IMG/VR virus record: IMGVR_UViG_3300005731_000047 | Span: 1 to 39,264 of that record | DNA from: a virus | Taxonomy: Duplodnaviria > Caudoviricetes | DNA length: 39,264 bases | Reading direction: 5' to 3' (one strand) | Part shown: piece by piece, positions 4,575 through 22,289 of the stretch | How positions within the stretch are numbered: the stretch's first letter is position 1 | Layout: every line of letters begins with the position of its first letter | Position numbers and translations under genes: made by a program | The notes under the pieces: model-generated | What the model was told of the DNA's origin: nothing | Databases searched by the model: none | Seen by the model: the letters and a program-made list of their open reading frames with translations, nothing else

Positions 4575-4793
4575 CTATACATCGGTGCGTTCGTTGTCGT
4601 CGCCGTAGAAAATCCCCTTGACCGCGAACATGCTTGCGGCCTCGATGTGAGTCAGAGAAATGGCGCGGCGTCGCTCGCTACCGTCTGGCAATTTGCTCAC
4701 CACCTCGGCAAGCTCGTTGGCGGCGGCCTTGATCGCGTCTACGAGATCGTTATTGGATGGGTTGAAGTCCTTGGCTGTTACGTCAGATTTCAT
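4575..4793 (-). CDS. Acb2/Tad1-like helical hairpin protein (putative nucleotide-signal sponge)
   Basis: GGAGA RBS before ATG 4793; FNPS..VDAIK and RRRAISLTHIEAASMFAVK resemble the Tad1/Acb2 hairpin motif. Confidence 0.55.
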   Translation of the reverse strand: MKSDVTAKDFNPSNNDLVDAIKAAANELAEVVSKLPDGSERRRAISLTHIEAASMFAVKGIFYGDDNERTDV

Positions 4794-4846
4794 GTTATTT
4801 TCTCCATTGGTTTGCGCGTGGATTGTACGCACGATTGATGTGTGGG

Positions 4847-5257
4847 TCAACTGACCTCGTTATCTTCGTTAAGGGTTACGCGATAGATGGTTCCGCCGTA
4901 GTCTTGCATGTAGTCAGCATCACTCCTGTTTTCATACACCGTCAGATCACCATGGCCATCGAGCAGAACGTATGCGACCTGCTCTGGCTTTACTTCGATT
5001 AAGTCATCACAATATTCTGTCTCTGTCGAATACCTACCATCTGCTCTCCACGACATGAGCACTCCACCCACAGACCCAATAACGGGGTGGTGTGGGTCAA
5101 TATCTACGCGGTTGCCATGCTTATCTAGGCGGTACAGGATATTGCCCTCACTATCCTCCACTCTACCACCCCGCAACTCCCAGCCCACATTTCGCGGCCA
5201 TAAATCAACCCATGTGCCGAGGCGGTAGATTCCTTCCATGGTAATTTTTTCGGTCAT
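4847..5257 (-). CDS. Hypothetical protein
   Basis: Start overlaps upstream stop (GTGATG) with GGAGG RBS; phage-type W.ADGRY...DDL motif. Confidence 0.65.
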   Translation of the reverse strand: MTEKITMEGIYRLGTWVDLWPRNVGWELRGGRVEDSEGNILYRLDKHGNRVDIDPHHPVIGSVGGVLMSWRADGRYSTETEYCDDLIEVKPEQVAYVLLDGHGDLTVYENRSDADYMQDYGGTIYRVTLNEDNEVS

Positions 5258-5668: not shown

Positions 5669-5698
5669 TTAGACAATTTGTCGCACCTTTGCTATGAT
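5669..5698 (+). promoter_or_regulatory. Sigma70-like promoter TAGACA-N17-TATGAT (extended TG) overlapped by a 17-bp palindromic box (5669-5685)
   Basis: Hexamers at 5670-5675 and 5693-5698; box TTAGACA-ATT-TGTCGCA. Confidence 0.65.
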
Positions 5699-5723
5699 AG
5701 GGCGTTAGCAATGGAGATATATC

Positions 5724-5801
5724 ATGCCTGAAGAATACAAGAAATACATCCCGTTTGTCGCTATCGCCGTTATCGTAGTTATCGGCCTAGTTGCGGGTTA
5801 A
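5724..5801 (+). CDS. 25-aa single-TM peptide MPEEYKKYIPFVAIAVIVVIGLVAG
   Basis: GGAG RBS, upstream promoter, hydrophobic helix; stop overlaps the clpP stop convergently; below the ORF-track cutoff. Confidence 0.6.
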   Translation: MPEEYKKYIPFVAIAVIVVIGLVAG

Positions 5802-6379
5802 TAGGTCTCTAAGACCTCATCCGCTATTCGGAACTTAACGCACTCTTCTGGGGTTAGCCATACATCGGTTTCCCTCAGAAGGTGCTTACGAATGTATTTT
5901 TCCTTATACCCTGTGAATTTCTCGTAGTGCGCGATAATACTGGCGCTCATCATTTCGTGAGACTTGCGCCGCGCCTCTAGCTCCGCCTCTTTCCCCGCCG
6001 AACCGCTAGAATAGGTATGACTCATAACCTGCGCGTTATGACACACTATCCGCTTATGTCCCGCCATTAGGGTAATCACCCCACAGGACGCCGCCAATCC
6101 CTGCGCAATTGTCGTTACAGGAATTTTGGACTGCCGTATTGCGTCAATAAGCTGCCAGCAATAGCGAACCTCACCACCCTCACTGTTGATATACAGCTTG
6201 ATTTCGTCGGGCTTGTTTCCCTTTAGGTTTAGCTCGTGGATCGCGGAAACCAAAGGCGCGATGTTATCCTTATCGAATGGCCCTGATAGAAACAGCACGC
6301 CATTTTCTCGTAGTAGCATCCCTGGCGGCTTAGGTGGTGCTGGCGGTGCTACTGGTGCTTTGCTCTTCTTCTTACCCAT
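5798..6379 (-). CDS. clpP: ClpP-family serine protease
   Basis: LYINSEGG, GLAASCG (catalytic Ser), VMSH (His), ETDVWLT (Asp), IADEV; AAGGAG RBS. Confidence 0.92.
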   Translation of the reverse strand: MGKKKSKAPVAPPAPPKPPGMLLRENGVLFLSGPFDKDNIAPLVSAIHELNLKGNKPDEIKLYINSEGGEVRYCWQLIDAIRQSKIPVTTIAQGLAASCGVITLMAGHKRIVCHNAQVMSHTYSSGSAGKEAELEARRKSHEMMSASIIAHYEKFTGYKEKYIRKHLLRETDVWLTPEECVKFRIADEVLETY

Positions 6380-6389
6380 GTCTATCTCC

Positions 6390-6464
6390 TTAATACCAGC
6401 CTTGTGAAACCCAGATTGCCGTAGCTGTCCCAGCGCCTATCGCGAATCCTATTAGAAACTCCAT
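6390..6464 (-). CDS. 24-aa single-TM peptide MEFLIGFAIGAGTATAIWVSQGWY
   Basis: ATG overlaps the sbmA-like stop (TAATG); its TAA merges into the clpP RBS, exactly filling the gap; GxxxG-type TM. Confidence 0.6.
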   Translation of the reverse strand: MEFLIGFAIGAGTATAIWVSQGWY

Positions 6465-7447
6465 TATTCCATTCCCTTCACTTTATCCTCGAACTCACGC
6501 AATCGCTTATATACTGAAGCAAGCTCTACAATCGTAGGCCATGAATTGATTAGGTACTGCATAGAGTTTTCCACCTTACCAAAGGCACGTACAATCTGCT
6601 GCATTAACCCCAGCGTAATAACTCCACCCACAATAGCTGGGGCCAAGAAGATATACGCCGTTAGGACGTTTGCTTGATAGTATGTCAGACGCCCCACATT
6701 GAACCACAGATAACGCAAGTAATTTGTGTAATGGATTTCCCGAACGCCTTGGAATAACTCTTCAAACGTCTTAGGGCGCTTCTTGCCATCCTTTTGCGTG
6801 TGAACCAGCATGTCACGATATGCCGCCTCCTTGACCTGAATATCATACTCAACACCAACTAGACGCAAGGCCCAAGAAAGCAGAACCATAAACAACGTTC
6901 CGCCAACCGTCCAGATAACAGCGCCAGCGACCAACCCATAATCCCAATCACCGAAGAACGTTACCGGAATAAACCAAGATAGCTCTAACAGGATTGGATA
7001 GAACACGATTAGCGTCAGGATGCTTTCCACAAGCGCCGTACCTAAGCCTTCGATAATCCGGCTAAATTTCACCGTATCCTCTTGAACCCGTTGAGCGGCC
7101 CCCTCCAGCTTATACGCCTTATGGAAAACTTGGTGATACCAATCGACCATTGAAGTACGCCAGCGAAATAACCAATGCTGAGTCAGGAAGTTTGATAGCA
7201 ACTTAACTGCAATCCAAAGCGCCGCTATTCCACCAAACACAGCCAAGCTACCAAAGTACATCGCCAGACCGGATTCATCGTGTATATTCCCGTAAGATAG
7301 GAACACTTGAATCATGTCGTAGAACTCACCAAACCACTTATTAATCTTAGCGTCCAGTCTAACGCCAATATATAGGCTCAGAAGGATTACAACGGTTCCA
7401 CCCCATGACCACAGACGCCACTTAGGGTCTTTGAAAAAATCAAACAT
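6464..7447 (-). CDS. sbmA: SbmA/BacA-family inner-membrane peptide transporter
   Basis: INKWFGEFYDMIQ, HWLFRWRTSM, EGAAQRVQEDT and NSWPTIVELASVYKRLREFE motifs; multiple TM helices. Confidence 0.9.
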   Translation of the reverse strand: MFDFFKDPKWRLWSWGGTVVILLSLYIGVRLDAKINKWFGEFYDMIQVFLSYGNIHDESGLAMYFGSLAVFGGIAALWIAVKLLSNFLTQHWLFRWRTSMVDWYHQVFHKAYKLEGAAQRVQEDTVKFSRIIEGLGTALVESILTLIVFYPILLELSWFIPVTFFGDWDYGLVAGAVIWTVGGTLFMVLLSWALRLVGVEYDIQVKEAAYRDMLVHTQKDGKKRPKTFEELFQGVREIHYTNYLRYLWFNVGRLTYYQANVLTAYIFLAPAIVGGVITLGLMQQIVRAFGKVENSMQYLINSWPTIVELASVYKRLREFEDKVKGME

Positions 7448-8196
7448 TATTCATCCTCCTCGTATAACTCTGGGCGATCTTCTTCGCCGCTGATTCCAAG
7501 TGCAACCTCGCGGCGCTGCTTGTTCTGCAAGTCCTGAAGCTCTTTAGGTGGATAGATGCGCTCTAAGAACCACTCATAGAAGTCATCTTGCTCCATATCC
7601 TTAAAAAACTCAGGAATGTCGATATAATCATACGCAAAGTTGTATGGCGTTCTGACGTAGAAATGCCCCAATTCCTCCTCAGTCGTAAACACAAGGAAAT
7701 CAGAGGGGCTTGTTAGATCGTTTGTCATCCGAGCCAGCAGTAGATTATAACCGTTCTCTATCATCAGATAGGCGTCAATGAGGCCGAACACCTGGCCCAT
7801 CTTCATACCGTACCCATCTGGAATTTCAGCGCGGTTATAGGCGATATGAAAGCCCAAAATGCCGTCAATTATTTTATGACCACCACCAAGGAAGCCCACA
7901 GCGCAAGCACTCATGCACATATACCCTTTAGGGACTTCAACTGTCATTTGTGCTTGGGAAAGAACATTAGCAATAGCATATCCCTCCCTAGCATCTCCGC
8001 CCTGAGATGTCATGATGACCTTTTGAGGCTGATACACCAGAATATAGGTTCTGAGGCCGTCCGCATCGCCGCGTGACACCCCGCCGTAGTAGTGGAGTAT
8101 CGGCGCTTGGCCCTCGACCTCTTGGACGTTGATGCCCCCCGCGTTCGATACTGTTGCCGTTAGCAAGAGAACCCCTGCAATCAAATATTTAAGCAT
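7447..8196 (-). CDS. Secreted/periplasmic ClpP/crotonase-fold protein (COG3904-like), putative peptidase
   Basis: Signal peptide (..TVSNA); MTSQGG, CMSACAVGFLGG and LGFH motifs. Confidence 0.7.
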   Translation of the reverse strand: MLKYLIAGVLLLTATVSNAGGINVQEVEGQAPILHYYGGVSRGDADGLRTYILVYQPQKVIMTSQGGDAREGYAIANVLSQAQMTVEVPKGYMCMSACAVGFLGGGHKIIDGILGFHIAYNRAEIPDGYGMKMGQVFGLIDAYLMIENGYNLLLARMTNDLTSPSDFLVFTTEEELGHFYVRTPYNFAYDYIDIPEFFKDMEQDDFYEWFLERIYPPKELQDLQNKQRREVALGISGEEDRPELYEEDE

Positions 8197-8639
8197 TATT
8201 CACCTCCCTTAGTTTCTCCGGTGTTATCACCAACCCAATCATCAAAGATCAGGCCCGAGTCCGCGTCACCGTCTACGCCCCTCTCGTCTGTTTCAAATCT
8301 ACCCTGTTGTGGGGTTCCTTGCTGCTGGGCTTCTGCAAGTTCCTCTGCTGCCCTCTGGTCAAACGGGATAACGTAAAGCCTATGCCCCACGCCCTTAACC
8401 CAAGACCAGATAATTATATCCTCGCCTTGAATCTCATGGTGAATGTAGATGAACCCATTAGGGGGATTGCTCTCAATCGGTTTTCCCAGAGACGCCTTAT
8501 AGTGGCCCTCCAGCCCTAAACCTAAAGCGACCAGCCCGACTATAGCAATGGCCTTAATAACCCCGTAGGCTCGGCTTGTGTACGCCAGAACAGCAACTAG
8601 AAGCGCAAGGCTTACGAATGCTATATAGATAACTGTCAT
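8196..8639 (-). CDS. Two-TM membrane protein with a soluble C-terminal domain
   Basis: Two N-terminal hydrophobic helices, LGKP, I.IW...HRLYVIPF; stop overlaps next start. Confidence 0.75.
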   Translation of the reverse strand: MTVIYIAFVSLALLVAVLAYTSRAYGVIKAIAIVGLVALGLGLEGHYKASLGKPIESNPPNGFIYIHHEIQGEDIIIWSWVKGVGHRLYVIPFDQRAAEELAEAQQQGTPQQGRFETDERGVDGDADSGLIFDDWVGDNTGETKGGE

Positions 8640-8648
8640 AGTTCCCTC

Positions 8649-9284
8649 CTACGGTATATTTGGGGTGGGCGCTCCTGAAGCTGAAGCGCTAGACATTTGT
8701 GCGGACCAGCGTAGTTTTACTTCTACTTGCTGATCCCTTTCGACAACCCGACCATCTTTGACCAGGAACCGAATAAAGGTCTTTTCCTCTCGTCTACCAA
8801 GATCAAAAGTTCCCTCGTACACAATGCGATAGTTTAAGATGTTAGTTACTCGGATCGTTACCGTCTCATCTGGCCCAGTGAATAGGTGAGCATTAACTGT
8901 GTACCATCCGTCAGGCAGTGCCGTGAGTGTAGTTATCTCGTAGTTCCTTGGAAGGGCTACGGCCACTCCATCAATAACAACCTTGTCTGTTGATTTACCC
9001 AAATCATCCTTCTTTAGGGTGATGTAACCGTTAGACTTGTTGGCGTAGTAAATAACCTTACCGTCTGGCCCTCTGACGTATAGGTCAACGTCCGTATCTC
9101 GCTCGGAAGGCCATTGCGCCTCAACCATCATCGAAATTGGCGGGTCAATTACGCCATTCTTAGTAATTGGGTTTAAGAATGCAATCATAACCGCAACTAA
9201 AAATAGAAATGACATCGTTAGGATAAACGTCATATCAAGGGCAACAGCGTTGTTATCCCTCTTTATGATCCGGTGATTATCCAT
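8649..9284 (-). CDS. MotB/ExbD-like partner: single TM with Asp plus periplasmic YfaP/DUF2135-like domain
   Basis: ATG 9284 overlaps the upstream stop; LDMTFILTMSFLFLVAVMIAFLNP TM; W...DTDVDLYVRGPDG..IYY.NK, DDLG, NYE and PDGWYTVNAH motifs. Confidence 0.7.
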   Translation of the reverse strand: MDNHRIIKRDNNAVALDMTFILTMSFLFLVAVMIAFLNPITKNGVIDPPISMMVEAQWPSERDTDVDLYVRGPDGKVIYYANKSNGYITLKKDDLGKSTDKVVIDGVAVALPRNYEITTLTALPDGWYTVNAHLFTGPDETVTIRVTNILNYRIVYEGTFDLGRREEKTFIRFLVKDGRVVERDQQVEVKLRWSAQMSSASASGAPTPNIP

Positions 9285-9699
9285 CTCGAATGCTCCGCTT
9301 TTGGAAGTCCAACCAAAGCTGTAGAACAAGACCAGCTAGAGTGGTGGTCATAGCCACACCCATACCCGCCATAACCTCAACAACCAGAACCTTAACGTCG
9401 TCAACTGTTTCAAGGTCTACACTCGCCGCAGAACCAAGAGCAATCATGAATCCGATGATTGTACCCAAGAAGCCAAGGCGCGTCATAATCTCGGTGATGA
9501 ACTCGTGCCAATGCGTCCAGTTTTTGCCGATTGTGCTTGCCGATGTTGCGAGGGCTAGGGCAATCATTCCAAGCGTCATATAGGTCACGTCACGCGCCAG
9601 AATCTCGTTGACCAGATCAAAGCGATACCAACCCACACCGAAGCAGATTATACCCACGATGAACACGGTCCACCATTTCCAGAAGTTTGATACCCTCAT
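9277..9699 (-). CDS. MotA/TolQ/ExbB-family proton-channel subunit
   Basis: LGFLGTIIGFMIAL and GMGVAMTTTLAGL signature helices; four TMs; GGGGAG RBS before ATG 9699 (alternative start 9714). Confidence 0.85.
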   Translation of the reverse strand: MRVSNFWKWWTVFIVGIICFGVGWYRFDLVNEILARDVTYMTLGMIALALATSASTIGKNWTHWHEFITEIMTRLGFLGTIIGFMIALGSAASVDLETVDDVKVLVVEVMAGMGVAMTTTLAGLVLQLWLDFQKRSIRDG

Positions 9700-9703
9700 T
9701 AGG

Positions 9704-9838
9704 CTACTCCCCATTATTCGCTGCCAAGCGTTCCTTGGCGCGGTTGCGTTCTTCTTTTGTCATTGGTCGGATTTTGGGTTTCTGAGGAACATTGCCGCCC
9801 CGAACCCACATGTCGATATATTCTTTGGTAGTACACAT
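9704..9838 (-). CDS. 44-aa basic peptide, first ORF of the envelope operon
   Basis: Strong AGGAGGT RBS; MCTTKEYIDMWVRGG...NNGE; below the ORF-track cutoff. Confidence 0.6.
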   Translation of the reverse strand: MCTTKEYIDMWVRGGNVPQKPKIRPMTKEERNRAKERLAANNGE

Positions 9839-9863
9839 GGCACACCTCCTAATAGTACCTTAT

Positions 9864-9893
9864 AGCCTAGAGGAGGGGTTGTATATGTGTCAA
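9864..9893 (-). promoter_or_regulatory. Sigma70-like promoter for the envelope operon, TTGACA-N18-TAGGCT
   Basis: Consensus -35 at 9893-9888 and -10-like hexamer at 9869-9864, just upstream of the AGGAGG RBS. Confidence 0.55.
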
Positions 9894-10269: not shown

Positions 10270-11022
10270 TTATTTAGCGACCCATCCAGTATTTCCGGTT
10301 CCGCTTTCCTTAATGTATAGCGTGGTCGAGGCCCCCCCGTCTGTTCTGGTATACATTGAGCCAATACCAGCCGTGACCGAGGATTCCGGTGTTCCAGAAC
10401 CTGATAACCAGACAACGTCACTCGAAGACGTTGGCGCGAAGTACGCGCCGCCAGTCGTTGCGTTGGTGCCGAACGATCCTAGTGTTGAGCCATCTTCTCT
10501 AATTTCAAAAACAGAACCTGCGGAAGACATCCTGTTCAAATATGCGACCGCTCCTCCGTCACGCGATACGGCTAGATAAGAACTAGAGGCGTTATAGTGC
10601 AGCCCTTCCGTTGTTGAGGAGCCGGATATATCCGTCGTGCAGTTAACGGAAAGCGCTCCAGTATTTGAGAATCTAGCCCGTTCAGTGTAACTCGAACCGT
10701 TAACTAATATTAGATTTCCGCCCGCAGACGTGCCTAGATTGAGATTGTCGCTCGTGTCCATCCAAAGCGCTGTTCGCTCTGTAGAGCCTGAGTCTAAAAA
10801 CCTTACTTGCGCATTGTTCGGCTGAATTGTGTTACCGACCTTTGTGACGGCAAACTTAGACCCCCCACCCGTCTGTAGGTCCATCAACAACGAACCAGCA
10901 GCGGAGGCTGTGTCGGTGACGTTTATCTTAATGGCAGTGAAGGCGGTTGCGCCGTCATTCCAGACGATACTCATATCTGAAAGGCTCTTATCGGAAAACC
11001 TGCCCTCGAATGGACTCTGCAT
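10270..11022 (-). CDS. Tail/head fibre-like receptor-binding protein
   Basis: G/S/T-rich beta-repeat; C-terminal GTPESSVTAGIGSMY...LYIKESGTGNTGW module seen at tailspike ends. Confidence 0.7.
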   Translation of the reverse strand: MQSPFEGRFSDKSLSDMSIVWNDGATAFTAIKINVTDTASAAGSLLMDLQTGGGSKFAVTKVGNTIQPNNAQVRFLDSGSTERTALWMDTSDNLNLGTSAGGNLILVNGSSYTERARFSNTGALSVNCTTDISGSSTTEGLHYNASSSYLAVSRDGGAVAYLNRMSSAGSVFEIREDGSTLGSFGTNATTGGAYFAPTSSSDVVWLSGSGTPESSVTAGIGSMYTRTDGGASTTLYIKESGTGNTGWVAK

Positions 11023-11116: not shown

Positions 11117-12982
11117 TTACACAGTCGTCCCGGCCGAATCCACCCAATTGCTCCCATCATACCAAATTGGCGTTCCTAGTGTTGTATCAAAATATGTCGC
11201 GCCAATAAACCCAACACCCGAGACGACGGCAGGGCGTGACGCCGTAACCCCCGCTAATGTAGGGATAACAGCCATCCATCCATTTTGATCGTAGCCTGTC
11301 GTTTTAACCCACTCGCGCTTTGTATACGAAGACGTGAAGGAGTGATGGTATCTTGTCCCCGGCCCCCCGAAGATAACCCCTTCCGGGGAAACAGTGTTCT
11401 TTTGGTGCGCCAGTATCGTCGCATAAGAGCCTGCTGTGCCTGTGAAATTTATCTGCTGGTTTTGGTTGTAATAGGACATATGCACACTCTCATCGACAAG
11501 GATGTGATCACAATCTGTCAGGCTGATATTTATAGGCCAATCATGGCTAGGCGTTAATGCCGCATAGTCGTCTGGCTCGTGAACGTTCAAAGTGTCAACG
11601 CCGATGATACTACCACCGATTACCGTGACTTGCTCACTGGCAGAAATTTGCATTCCATATCTAGTTACACCGTCAAGTGCGTTGTGGATGTTGTGGCAGT
11701 TAGCTACGGTTACATCTATAGCCTGTGTAACAGTAATCCCAAACTGCTCATTGTCGTAACTTAAAACGCCATTAGCTGTAACATTACGGCAACGCCCAAG
11801 CACAACGCCAGAACCTAAGTTATCATGGTATCGCCCACCTATCACCGAAATATTCGGTACTAGCGGGTCGGTAAGGCCGGACCCTGAGTGGCGTGTGATT
11901 TGGATGCCGTCCGTAGTGTTCAAATAGGAATTGCAATTACTGATAGTCATCTTCCCAAGAGCGCCTAACTCCGATTGGAGGGAAAGATTTGACTTAACAT
12001 AAACCCCAGCCCCCACATTCGAATAGCACTCAAGCCCGTCAACTAAGACCTCCAACCCGCCAGCAGAAATATCTATGCCGTTCCCGTTATTGCCTAACGG
12101 GTCTCCATTGTCGTGACTGGAGCCGCCCCTAACGACAATGCCATCATTATGTCCTCTTAGCTTTATCCCGTCTAAGGAGTTGCTGTACCCCTCAAAGTTC
12201 TCGATTAAAGCCTCGTCAGTAAACTGCACCCTAAGACCATAACCGCTTTTAGCGTTCGACCCACGGCAATTACTTATGCGTATCCTAGATACAGTCCCAG
12301 AAACCGCGCCCAGATCACCGTCAATCCAAAAGTTTGTTCCGAACCCATCAGCGGAAACACTCTCTAGAACAGCCCCTGACGCCGACCCTAAAACTTTAAC
12401 CCCAACAGTTCCTGAATCCGCGATATGTACTAATGATAAGTTTCTCACGGTTGTGTTAGACTTGTTGTCAATATTGACAAAGCCGTCACTCAAAGGGGTG
12501 GATGTAGTGCAGTGCAGAATTGCACCCCTACTAGAGGCTTCTAGTAGTTGACCGGACAGAAGCGTTATAGTGTCAGAAATTCCATAATAACCATCTGGCG
12601 TATAGATGTTCAATCCGCTCGCCGCTGCATCCTGAAACGCAGCCGTGTCATCCGTGCTGTAGAAGTATTCTGAACTAGAAACAGTCGTCGCTGCTGCCTC
12701 CGTGGTCTCCACCTCGGAGGCAGACGTAATGCTTGCAATCGTGGTTACAAGACCAACTCCAGCCGCGCCTGCCCCCGCGATGATTAAAACCTTGCCAACG
12801 TCACTTGAAGTGAATGCCCCCCCCGCAGACGTAAAGGTGTTGTCAGATGCCGTGATAGCCCCGTCAGAGGCGCTAATCCCATCCCCCTTAGCGCCGTATT
12901 CCTTAACGTTAATGGGCGCGCCTTCGACGCGGGTCTTTTCTGCTCGTGATAAGTGTCGCGGTCCAAATGGGCTGCGCGTCAT
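11117..12982 (-). CDS. Tailspike / polysaccharide depolymerase (right-handed beta-helix, pectate_lyase_3-like)
   Basis: INVKEYGAKGDG...DDTAAFQDA, IYTPDGYY, many N..DGI parallel beta-helix repeats, C-terminal YFDTTLGTPIWYDG module. Confidence 0.88.
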   Translation of the reverse strand: MTRSPFGPRHLSRAEKTRVEGAPINVKEYGAKGDGISASDGAITASDNTFTSAGGAFTSSDVGKVLIIAGAGAAGVGLVTTIASITSASEVETTEAAATTVSSSEYFYSTDDTAAFQDAAASGLNIYTPDGYYGISDTITLLSGQLLEASSRGAILHCTTSTPLSDGFVNIDNKSNTTVRNLSLVHIADSGTVGVKVLGSASGAVLESVSADGFGTNFWIDGDLGAVSGTVSRIRISNCRGSNAKSGYGLRVQFTDEALIENFEGYSNSLDGIKLRGHNDGIVVRGGSSHDNGDPLGNNGNGIDISAGGLEVLVDGLECYSNVGAGVYVKSNLSLQSELGALGKMTISNCNSYLNTTDGIQITRHSGSGLTDPLVPNISVIGGRYHDNLGSGVVLGRCRNVTANGVLSYDNEQFGITVTQAIDVTVANCHNIHNALDGVTRYGMQISASEQVTVIGGSIIGVDTLNVHEPDDYAALTPSHDWPINISLTDCDHILVDESVHMSYYNQNQQINFTGTAGSYATILAHQKNTVSPEGVIFGGPGTRYHHSFTSSYTKREWVKTTGYDQNGWMAVIPTLAGVTASRPAVVSGVGFIGATYFDTTLGTPIWYDGSNWVDSAGTTV

Positions 12983-17865: not shown

Positions 17866-18344
17866 CTGACAAAAGCGAAATGCCGGAGCGGATTTGGGCA
17901 ACAGCCCCTTATATCGGTGAATACTTGGCTGATCCACCTGTAGGCCCAATCGACCGCATGTATCTAACCGAGTACATCCGCGCCGCCCTATCCCAGCCTA
18001 TGTGCGCAGCGGTGAAGCCTTTGGAGTGGGAGCGCGAAGAAGATTGGCGGTATATTGGCAGACCACCTGTGAAACTAGGCGGCTACTGCTGTTGGGTGAT
18101 GCTAAATAATGGGGAATGGCGTCATCGGGGAAGGCCAGAGCGGTACGACACCCTAGAAGCCGCCAAAGCCGCCGCCAACACCCACTACACCCGCCGCATC
18201 ACCGAGGCGCTGGACATGAAGGCCGAAGCGGAAGTGCGGGTGACTGTTTGTGACGAAATTCTTGAGCACGTGCAAGACGACGACAGAGGTGTTACGATTG
18301 TTGATGCTGATATTATAGAAGCAATCAGAGAAGGGGAAGAGTGA
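17862..18344 (+). CDS. Hypothetical protein, paralogue of 16866..17429
   Basis: MPERIWA, EYIRA, VKPLEW, TLEAAKAAA motifs typical of alphaproteobacterial phage early genes. Confidence 0.75.
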   Translation: MTDKSEMPERIWATAPYIGEYLADPPVGPIDRMYLTEYIRAALSQPMCAAVKPLEWEREEDWRYIGRPPVKLGGYCCWVMLNNGEWRHRGRPERYDTLEAAKAAANTHYTRRITEALDMKAEAEVRVTVCDEILEHVQDDDRGVTIVDADIIEAIREGEE

Positions 18345-18673
18345 TGACGGGTAAGTTCGAACTATACGCCGACAAAGCTGGAGGGTTTCGCTTTAGGCTT
18401 AAAGCACCCAGCGGTGTTATCATTTTAGCCAGTGAGGTGTTTAAGCGAAAGTCTAGTGTAGAGAACGTTATTGAGAGTGTGCGTAAGAACTCCCAGAACC
18501 TCAGAATGTATGACTTCCGCATCCGTCTTGGCAGGATAAGCTTTAACCTCAAAGCAAAAAACGGGCAGGTTATCGGTACATCTGAAAAGTTCACAAGTGA
18601 GGAAGCACGGGATCACATGGTAGACGTGGTTAGACGTACTGCACCTGATGCAACCCTTGAGGACTTGACATGA
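18341..18673 (+). CDS. YegP/DUF1508-family protein
   Basis: Tandem FRFRLKA..G.IILASE and FNLKAKNGQVIGTSE repeats. Confidence 0.9.
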   Translation: MMTGKFELYADKAGGFRFRLKAPSGVIILASEVFKRKSSVENVIESVRKNSQNLRMYDFRIRLGRISFNLKAKNGQVIGTSEKFTSEEARDHMVDVVRRTAPDATLEDLT

Positions 18674-21701: not shown

Positions 21702-22063
21702 AGAGAACACCGCTTAAACGAGGGGGCAAGCCCATGCGTAAGGTCTCGAAAAAGAAGGCCGCGCATAGGGCGTCTAAAGCGGGGAAGGATGGCCTAGACT
21801 ACATGTTGGCGGTTAAGCAGCTTCCCTGTTGCATATGCGGCGCTCCGCCGCCCTCTGAGGCACATCACACAATATGCAGCCGCTTCGGGTCTAGGAAAAC
21901 ATCAGACTTTAACACCATTCCGCTCTGCGCTTATCATCACAGAGTAGGCCCAGACGCAATCCATAACGGAAAAGAATCATGGGTTGAAAAGTACGGCCCA
22001 GATACCGACTATATCGAACGAACAAGAAAGCTAGTAGAGGAACACTATGACAGATTCATATAG
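21698..22063 (+). CDS. DUF968/Ref-like HNH-type nuclease
   Basis: MKRTPLKR, LPCCICG, EAHH, TIPLCAYHH, AIH. Confidence 0.8.
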   Translation: MKRTPLKRGGKPMRKVSKKKAAHRASKAGKDGLDYMLAVKQLPCCICGAPPPSEAHHTICSRFGSRKTSDFNTIPLCAYHHRVGPDAIHNGKESWVEKYGPDTDYIERTRKLVEEHYDRFI

Positions 22064-22289
22064 AGTAATTGCAGACGAATTGCGCCAGTTTATTGAGCGC
22101 TACGAGCGCCTGGAGTTGGATAAGACCGACATTGCCAGCGCTCAGAAAGAGGTGTTGGGAGAGGCCAAATCACGCGGCTATGACGTTCCCACGATAAAGA
22201 AGATTATTGCAGAGCGCAAAAAGGCCGCCGATAAACGCGCAGAAGAGGCAGCAGTGTTTGAAATGTATGCCGAGGCTATAGGACTGTGA
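22047..22289 (+). CDS. gapR: GapR/DUF2312 nucleoid-associated protein homologue
   Basis: DELRQFIERYERLE.DK, EAKSRGYD...KKIIAERK, EEAAV.EMY.EAIGL. Confidence 0.9.
   Translation: MTDSYRVIADELRQFIERYERLELDKTDIASAQKEVLGEAKSRGYDVPTIKKIIAERKKAADKRAEEAAVFEMYAEAIGL

Follow-up and report, generated by a model that had tools for sequence, protein, structure and literature searches.

The virus record IMGVR_UViG_3300005731_000047 (IMG/VR; 39,264 nt, analyzed over its whole length and referred to as the window) contains a cassette of eight open reading frames (ORFs), six of which recur together across viral loci. These six encode (i) A, a MotA/TolQ/ExbB-like membrane subunit; (ii) B, a membrane-anchored beta-sandwich protein; (iii) C, a small membrane protein; (iv) D, a predicted exported serine peptidase; (v) a short form of the peptide importer SbmA/BacA; and (vi) a ClpP-family protease. 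The cassette is built from two modules, A-B-C and D-SbmA-ClpP, and is not one indivisible unit. By prediction, A, B, and C assemble into a proton motor of the 5:2 class in the inner membrane, with A as the ring, B as the axle carrying Asp17, and C as the output partner. Tentatively, at somewhat less than even chances, we propose that the cassette serves virus production by turning protein from the periplasm or from outside back into amino acids in the course of infection.

Gene neighborhoods were collected in two sets, both biased toward close relatives of the window. SbmA of the window fetched 62 viral loci, 40 of which had enough flanking sequence (near-duplicates were kept). These comprised 14 loci with D-SbmA-ClpP, 13 with D-A-B-C-SbmA-ClpP, six with SbmA alone, four with A-B-C-SbmA, and three others. 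An alignment of B matched 264 viral stretches. Within the best 80 of these 264, A and C flanked B in all but four, which end at a contig edge. Sufficient flank was available for 49 of the 80, with all six genes in 27, A-B-C only in 17, and partial sets in five; the corresponding counts for 34 non-redundant loci were 13, 12, and nine. The co-occurrence of these families, for which the original prediction had suggested a neighborhood search, therefore extends far beyond this genome. Hosts of the cassette span podophage-sized and >130-kb phage genomes. The usual gene order is D-A-B-C-SbmA-ClpP, with D behind C in the window, and both the order and the strand of D vary (L100, L113-L119, and the window). 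A separate search for D in five viral records found it in two, both known cassettes; the other three records were 24-28% complete.

In a tree of 82 B sequences (FastTree, midpoint root), the full cassettes belonged to one clade (0.956), which also contains A-B-C-only and A-B-C-SbmA loci. The six-gene form is retained across B identities of 25-49%. B of the window is sister to that of L001 (0.995), whose twin L002 has a ribonucleotide reductase nearby. Class II (B12-type) ribonucleotide reductases, of two kinds, were found at most 1.5 kb upstream in 20 of 58 non-redundant loci, and in many loci the cassette comes after ribonucleotide reductase or PhoH genes, i.e. in a lytic-metabolism setting. 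We also noted a Na/Pi-cotransporter-like membrane gene (PF02690) just upstream of A-B-C in T4-like phages (L050, L051, L117, and L128).

The assignment of A to the MotA/TolQ/ExbB group held up. A of the window matched PF01618 under the Pfam cut-off (E 5e-4), and its chromosomal homologs passed it (E 6e-8 to 8e-12). The profile of A matched MotA and ZorA chains weakly, ZorA being among the closest described profiles (E 4e-7). D42 and G81-x-x-G84-T85-x-x-G88 were invariant in 78 aligned rows, and T124 was present in 75/78. Phage A proteins are 136-187 aa long vs. 180-270 aa for most chromosomal ones, and the length gap corresponds to the stretch between the second and third hydrophobic segments. 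Judged by position, the missing stretch would be the cytoplasmic domain. Since phage A would thus be without most of that domain, the output of the motor is likely not cytoplasmic.

B had been proposed as an Asp-bearing transmembrane (TM) partner with a YfaP-like periplasmic domain, and both features were recovered. Its model consists of a single TM helix (residues 11-37) followed by a beta-sandwich (predicted local distance difference test score, pLDDT, 82). Asp17 in the membrane helix was present in 78/78 rows, and the sandwich residues D65, D67, D93, D94, D100, N114, and E116 were likewise invariant; the invariant acidic residues suggest Ca2+ sites. The best matches of the model were TerD proteins (Foldseek E 1.5e-4; VIA Z 10.3 and 9.2, next 6.3; root mean square deviation 3.6-4.0 over 130-136 aligned residues), and the protein atlas ties B to YfaP/DUF2135. 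A sequence-profile search of B against solved structures gave nothing credible and matched no TerD chain. B resembles TerD and YfaP/DUF2135 in its fold and invariant acidic residues, but its domain sits on a membrane axle facing the periplasm, and no ter or alpha-2-macroglobulin genes lie nearby. The copy in the window carries T23/S25 where L/G are nearly invariant. C, the constant partner gene of A and B, is the sole part outside known families; the other parts belong to or resemble known ones. It has two N-terminal TM helices, a small predicted periplasmic domain, and the motifs G-x-P, W78, and R-L-Y. No Pfam, PHROG, or PDB match was obtained for the C family, and a profile search against solved structures gave nothing credible.

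ExbBD, TolQR, and MotAB are ion-driven motors of the 5:2 type. In the motors described, five A subunits enclose a pair of B helices, and an additional protein, e.g. TonB, transmits force into the periplasm (PMC9389320). A-B-C shares with ExbB-ExbD-TonB, TolQ-TolR-TolA, and MotA-MotB the G-x-x-G-T-x-x-G and A-x-x-T-T motifs of A, a single-pass partner with an invariant membrane Asp, and a third membrane protein in the operon. It differs from them in the TerD-like periplasmic domain of B, which has no ExbD match and no OmpA-type motif (0/78 rows; the modeled sandwich is all-beta), in C, where a second TM helix is present and the long TonB/TolA linker is missing, and in phage A, which would be without most of the cytoplasmic domain. 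The single TM helix, long linker, and C-terminal domain of TonB in the Ton system were not found in C, nor did the 147-aa protein match TonB in Pfam or PDB. The 5:2 stoichiometry is a prediction here. A and B, originally described as a stator-like ion channel, fit a motor with an additional, third subunit better. With ZorA-ZorB of the Zorya system, the trio has in common a MotA-like membrane part and a possible phage-related role; unlike Zorya, A (145 aa) has no ZorA tail, B has no OmpA domain, and the genes are carried by phages and by chromosomes outside defense islands. Membership in Zorya was ruled out, as no ZorC/D/E was found and the other seven ORFs had no PADLOC match.

The model of D (pLDDT 87.6) matched ClpP and NfeD/1510-N folds in Foldseek, with 12-19% identity to solved structures. 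S96 and H117 were conserved in 27/27 rows and C94/C98 in 26/27 (C-x-S-x-C motif); no third conserved catalytic Asp was seen in the aligned rows. The ClpP/crotonase fold first proposed for D therefore stood, while the accompanying signal peptide was read by eye and went uncalled in a 19-residue hydropathy scan, as did the 24-aa peptide of the cassette. D is predicted to be an exported serine peptidase. It shares the fold and the nucleophile-elbow Ser plus His with ClpP and NfeD/1510-N, and differs in its signal-peptide-like N-terminus and C-x-S-x-C motif.

SbmA matched PF05992 (E 5e-113, residues 9-323 of 327), with no nucleotide-binding domain present, and E. coli SbmA (E 1e-74); the latter alignment begins at E. 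coli residue 78, so the TM0 region is missing. The equivalents of E193, E203, E269, E276, E378, Y116, R280, and Y368 are retained, and those of E287, D288, and Y285 are not (E287 to Q218, D288 to K219). D212 replaces a Lys, and the trio Q218, K219, and D212 is unique to the window among 57 aligned rows, with E287 retained in 56/57 and D288 in 55/57. The Lys-to-Asp change at 212 and the Asp-to-Lys change at 219, seven residues apart, suggest that charges at the cytoplasmic gate have been swapped in a compensated way. In E. coli SbmA, E193, E203, E276, E378, Y116, R280, Y368, E287, and D288 were tested, and Ala at E287 blocked transport (PMC8442886). The phage protein resembles the SbmA/BacA (SLiPT) transporters (PMC8442886, PMC12912959) in its six-helix core and in the majority of ladder and gate residues, and departs from them in lacking TM0, in being phage-encoded beside proteases, and, in this copy, at E287/D288.

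ClpP matched PF00574 above the cut-off (E 2e-28), and its full triad (S98, H121, and D172) was found in 27/27 aligned rows, which include one distant ClpP of the ordinary kind. Both the importer and the intact triad had been recognized originally. The protein belongs to a distinct subfamily whose genes accompany SbmA and not the head genes. A role as prohead protease, already thought unlikely, was ruled out by position (portal-scaffold-capsid lie elsewhere) and by 61 terminase relatives, none of which has this ClpP.

The proteases beside A-B-C vary. B matched 29 of 50,697 GenBank phage records, all of them Rhizobium or Sinorhizobium phages (including 16-3, P10VF, and RL38J1). Six cultured-phage regions were read: A and C flank B in five by profile, and in the sixth (L068), which was unlabeled, A was matched by tblastn. 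A trypsin-like protease gene, annotated so in GenBank, lies just upstream of A in 16-3, RHph_X2_25, and RHph_TM3_3_14B; in RHph_N3_19, one lies ~2 kb downstream, and none was seen in the regions read of RHph_N34 and RHph_I1_18. Scans with two cultured-phage B proteins gathered 25 further rhizobial-type loci, all with A-B-C and 21 with a trypsin-like protease, which was located within ~1.1 kb upstream of A in 19, directly after C in one (an HtrA-like lipoprotein, L380), and 2.6 kb downstream in one (L357). The trypsin-like proteases start with sequences that, by eye, are signal- or lipoprotein-like. A putatively exported serine protease of unrelated fold thus replaces D beside the motor. Further genes of protein turnover accompany the modules: a Glu/Leu/Phe/Val dehydrogenase between or after SbmA and ClpP in six non-redundant loci, an M42 aminopeptidase beside SbmA/ClpP in L027/L080, an S8 subtilase lipoprotein in L084, and ClpS adjoining C in five loci; HSP20 and ClpS flank A-B-C in some large phages.

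A-B-C and SbmA are both of host type. By profile search, B was found in 56 of 401 sampled alphaproteobacterial genomes, mostly in single copy. Pattern scans of genome contigs with one phage B returned nothing, a blank that in view of the 56/401 reflects a sensitivity limit; the same applies to an empty scan with ClpP of the window. All 41 chromosomal regions read contained A and B, set among varied genes of housekeeping and metabolism; C was present in 38 of them, recognized in 37 by profile and in one by clustering. Genes for pyrroloquinoline quinone (PQQ)-dependent dehydrogenases lie near A-B-C in nine of the 41 (L266, L267, L269, L270, L271, L274, L276, L293, and L294); together with the TerD-like acidic sites of B, this hints at a role in hosts that involves Ca2+ or periplasmic enzymes. 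A conserved 230-260-aa lipoprotein-like gene (weak DUF3108-like match) follows C in L255, L256, and L258-L264 and is a candidate fourth component. D was present in one of five A-B-C chromosomes searched, far from A-B-C. SAR11, SAR116, and other marine alphaproteobacteria carry the short SbmA on their chromosomes (323-330 aa, 61-63% identical, equally without TM0), and phage and cell copies are interleaved on the SbmA tree. Across flanks of up to 8 kb, all 80 chromosomal SbmA loci were free of A, B, C, and D. An intact host operon as the source of the cassette was ruled out by these 80 loci and the 41 A-B regions. As hosts keep A-B-C and SbmA apart, the cassette was put together in phages, out of separate parts of host type. 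In a SAR116 single-cell genome (L224; G002:C3:155-1690), a contig opens with A, B, and C and continues with metabolic genes; its A has the length of a phage A (152 aa), and the locus possibly represents a phage-to-host transfer or the donor type.

In the recycling scheme that we tentatively favor, D would act on protein in the periplasm, cleaving it to peptides that SbmA would take up together with protons, and ClpP would complete their breakdown in the cytoplasm. A-B-C, if its products assemble into a complex, would act in the periplasm and make substrate available to the protease, either by tugging at or loosening proteins of the envelope or by creating an entry through the outer membrane. 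The substrate and the timing during infection are conjectured, and what the motor moves is the most conjectural element of all. Recycling is favored because all phage attachments to A-B-C handle protein, i.e. exported proteases of two folds, an importer, cytoplasmic peptidases, and an amino-acid dehydrogenase. Further reasons are that the six genes recur together across viral loci, that SbmA retains proton-coupling glutamates named in PMC8442886, that the cassette has a lytic-metabolism neighborhood in many loci, and that no integrase or repressor was found among the 53 ORFs scanned in this genome. In rhizobia, import by BacA is followed by proteolysis (PMC12912959). The single cut-import-degrade pathway originally envisaged is thus supported by the repeated recruitment of unrelated peptidases and a dehydrogenase, but its unity is not, given the two modules (12/34 loci with A-B-C only, 14/40 with D-SbmA-ClpP). 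Among the three functions suggested at that time, nutrient recycling fits best, with superinfection exclusion and peptide detoxification less favored.

Several observations count against this proposal. A-B-C occurs without a cassette protease or SbmA in the 12 of 34 non-redundant viral loci, none of the 41 chromosomal A-B regions has D, SbmA, or ClpP nearby, and B and a stand-alone SbmA were found together in only 2/401 genomes (Fisher p 0.55); the many lone A-B-C loci and the missing host link weigh against full coupling. Four of the 25 rhizobial-type loci (one of them cut) have no protease, and the 19 loci with an upstream protease, a raw count, are kin and represent ~1 event. The window showed no ClpX/ClpA-type ATPase, and ClpP without an ATPase partner handles only short peptides, which would limit ClpP here. 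Because of Q218 at the E287 position of SbmA and T23/S25 in B, this particular copy may be impaired or retuned. Finally, 16-3 is temperate, which suits exclusion as well.

As a bolder and doubtful extension, A-B-C could be a proton-driven periplasmic unfoldase feeding an exported serine protease, a periplasmic counterpart of ClpX-ClpP. The TerD-like domain of B and C would grip envelope or imported protein and unfold or extract it without ATP. Phages of marine and soil alphaproteobacteria would have captured A-B-C and paired it with unrelated proteases at least three times, and the addition of importer, ClpP, and amino-acid dehydrogenase would turn the infected cell into a protein-eating machine.

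Superinfection exclusion, although unlikely, fares best among the alternatives to recycling. Here, the motor would sense or grip incoming ejection or tail proteins in the periplasm, the exported protease would destroy them, and SbmA and ClpP would clear the fragments. Motor and exported protease indeed form a unit recurring in unrelated phages, the anti-phage motor protein ZorA is among the closest profiles of A, and temperate 16-3 carries protease-A-B-C ~3 kb from its immX genes. In the window, the cassette is a moron-like insertion that has a promoter-like site of its own and is missing from all 61 terminase relatives. However, the amino-acid dehydrogenase and the aminopeptidase found within the cassette of other phages serve catabolism and not exclusion, D-SbmA-ClpP also occurs where the motor is absent, the neighbors of chromosomal A-B-C are housekeeping and metabolic rather than defense genes, and none of the eight ORFs has a ZorC/D/E-like match.

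We also consider it unlikely, and rank next, that the two modules merely share a promoter and do separate jobs without mechanical coupling, A-B-C supporting the infected-cell envelope as the host operon does and D-SbmA-ClpP handling peptides. Such independence would account for the occurrence of either module without the other, for their separation in hosts, and for the variable gene order and D strand. It would not account for the fact that, on distant branches of the B tree, exported serine proteases with two unrelated folds have become partners of A-B-C in at least three arrangements, nor for the retention of the six-gene form across the range of B identities given above. Protection of the infected cell is improbable. 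The cassette would remove antimicrobial peptides, defense effectors, or misfolded envelope protein, keeping the cell energized until lysis, much as BacA import and proteolysis detoxify nodule-specific cysteine-rich (NCR) peptides in rhizobia (PMC12912959). HSP20 and ClpS beside A-B-C in several large phages and an Acb2/Tad1-like anti-defense gene 1 kb downstream of the cassette would suit this role, but SbmA occurs in 4/50,697 phage records, none rhizobial, although rhizobial hosts meet such peptides, and detoxification has no need of a dehydrogenase. Least probable by far is cobalamin uptake, in which a Ton-like energizer and an SbmA/BacA-fold importer would supply B12 to a phage class II ribonucleotide reductase: the adenosylcobalamin-type reductases just upstream in many loci speak for it, as does the kinship of SbmA with the B12 transporters Rv1819c and ABCD4 (E 4e-6 to 1e-4), but the genome studied here is complete and contains the entire cassette without any reductase, the proteases are left unexplained, C is short and without a TonB match, and SbmA matches the peptide transporter far better (see above).

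The virus record is complete, with direct terminal repeats, and represents a 39-kb P22-like podophage, whose portal, capsid, tail, and ejection genes are P22-like and which also has lysis genes and genes for recombination (Erf/SSB/NinB/RusA). Integrase, repressor, polymerase, and ribonucleotide reductase were not found among 53 ORFs (PHROGs scan) and 17 ORFs (Pfam scan). Judging from the relatives of SbmA, the host is probably a marine alphaproteobacterium. The cassette is flanked by two fiber-like genes on one side and the small terminase on the other, and its GC content, overall and at third codon positions (GC3), matches the rest of the genome. Since none of the 61 terminase relatives (36 with at least 7 kb upstream) carries any cassette gene, the cassette is an accessory here, which this phage presumably gained from another lineage.

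All eight tightly packed ORFs of the original prediction are present on one strand (Table 1), with inter-ORF gaps, in order, of -11, -8, +9, -1, -1, -1, and +10 bp. The promoter proposed for them, TTGACA-N18-TAGGCT, is present as a sequence, and as the cassette promoter it is plausible but unproven, because it is absent from the output of a consensus scan, its -10 element matches 3/6 positions, TTGACA occurs 17 times genome-wide, and the TGA within it is the stop codon of the upstream ORF. Sequences resembling a ribosome-binding site (RBS) precede the 44-aa and 24-aa ORFs; tblastn, which is weak for such short queries, found no homologs of either in the fetched related loci, and both look specific to this genome. 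At the 3′ end, the cassette is bounded by a 25-aa TM ORF on the opposite strand whose stop overlaps that of ClpP. Its strong convergent promoter-like site with extended -10 could serve a small membrane toxin, an exclusion peptide, or an antisense RNA.

Table 1. Features of the cassette and its 3′ boundary in the window.
Feature	Position	Strand	Basis
Promoter-like site TTGACA-N18-TAGGCT; -35 overlaps stop of upstream 67-aa ORF	9864..9893	-	Sequence
44-aa basic ORF, AGGAGG RBS-like, no family	9704..9838	-	ORF list, family scans
A, MotA/TolQ/ExbB-like membrane subunit, 145 aa	9277..9714	-	Profiles, alignment
B, TM helix + TerD/YfaP-like beta-sandwich, 211 aa from ATG with RBS-like sequence	8649..9284	-	Model, alignment
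C, two TM helices, no family, 147 aa	8196..8639	-	Family scans, hydropathy
D, predicted exported ClpP/crotonase-fold serine peptidase, 249 aa	7447..8196	-	Model, alignment
SbmA/BacA peptide importer, short form, 327 aa	6464..7447	-	PF05992, alignment
24-aa hydrophobic ORF	6390..6464	-	ORF list
ClpP-family protease, Lys/Pro-rich N-terminus, 193 aa	5798..6379	-	PF00574, alignment
Convergent promoter-like site TAGACA-17-TATGAT with TG + 25-aa TM ORF (5724-5801)	5670..5801	+	Sequence, hydropathy

Further genes were noted around the cassette and elsewhere in the window. Between cassette and small terminase lies an Acb2/Tad1 hairpin protein gene (4575-4850, - strand; PF24729, E 3e-12), likely encoding a sponge for anti-phage signaling nucleotides. 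Directly upstream of the cassette and apart from the tail module, a beta-helix spike (11117-12982) and a second fiber-like gene (10270-11022) lie on the - strand; both are unmatched in the terminase relatives, so the whole block upstream of the cassette is variable. Two + strand genes with unnamed PHROG hits encode an 80-aa small host-like protein (22047-22289), which we take to resemble GapR/DUF2312, and a 110-aa repeat protein (18341-18673), presumably YegP-like.

In the open literature, which leaves subscription papers outside, we found no published description of the cassette or of an A-B-C family paired with proteases and SbmA. The main text of bioRxiv 10.64898/2026.10.24.761521 does not mention ExbB, MotA, TolQ, SbmA, or YfaP, and its supplements may list these families; a term search of PMC10460002 gave no discussion of the 16-3 genes of the A-B-C locus. 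A-B-C thus represents an undescribed three-gene branch of the 5:2 motor class, common on alphaproteobacterial chromosomes and in phages, with 1,431 protein clusters at 90% identity in addition to the 264 viral stretches. The phage gene neighborhoods are the first functional clue to this branch, and cultured phages with B (Rhizobium phage 16-3, P10VF, RL38J1, and others) make the link between motor and protease directly testable. If the recycling proposal is true, viruses of abundant marine bacteria would themselves encode a complete route for organic nitrogen, which starts with cleavage in the periplasm and ends with the deamination of amino acids.

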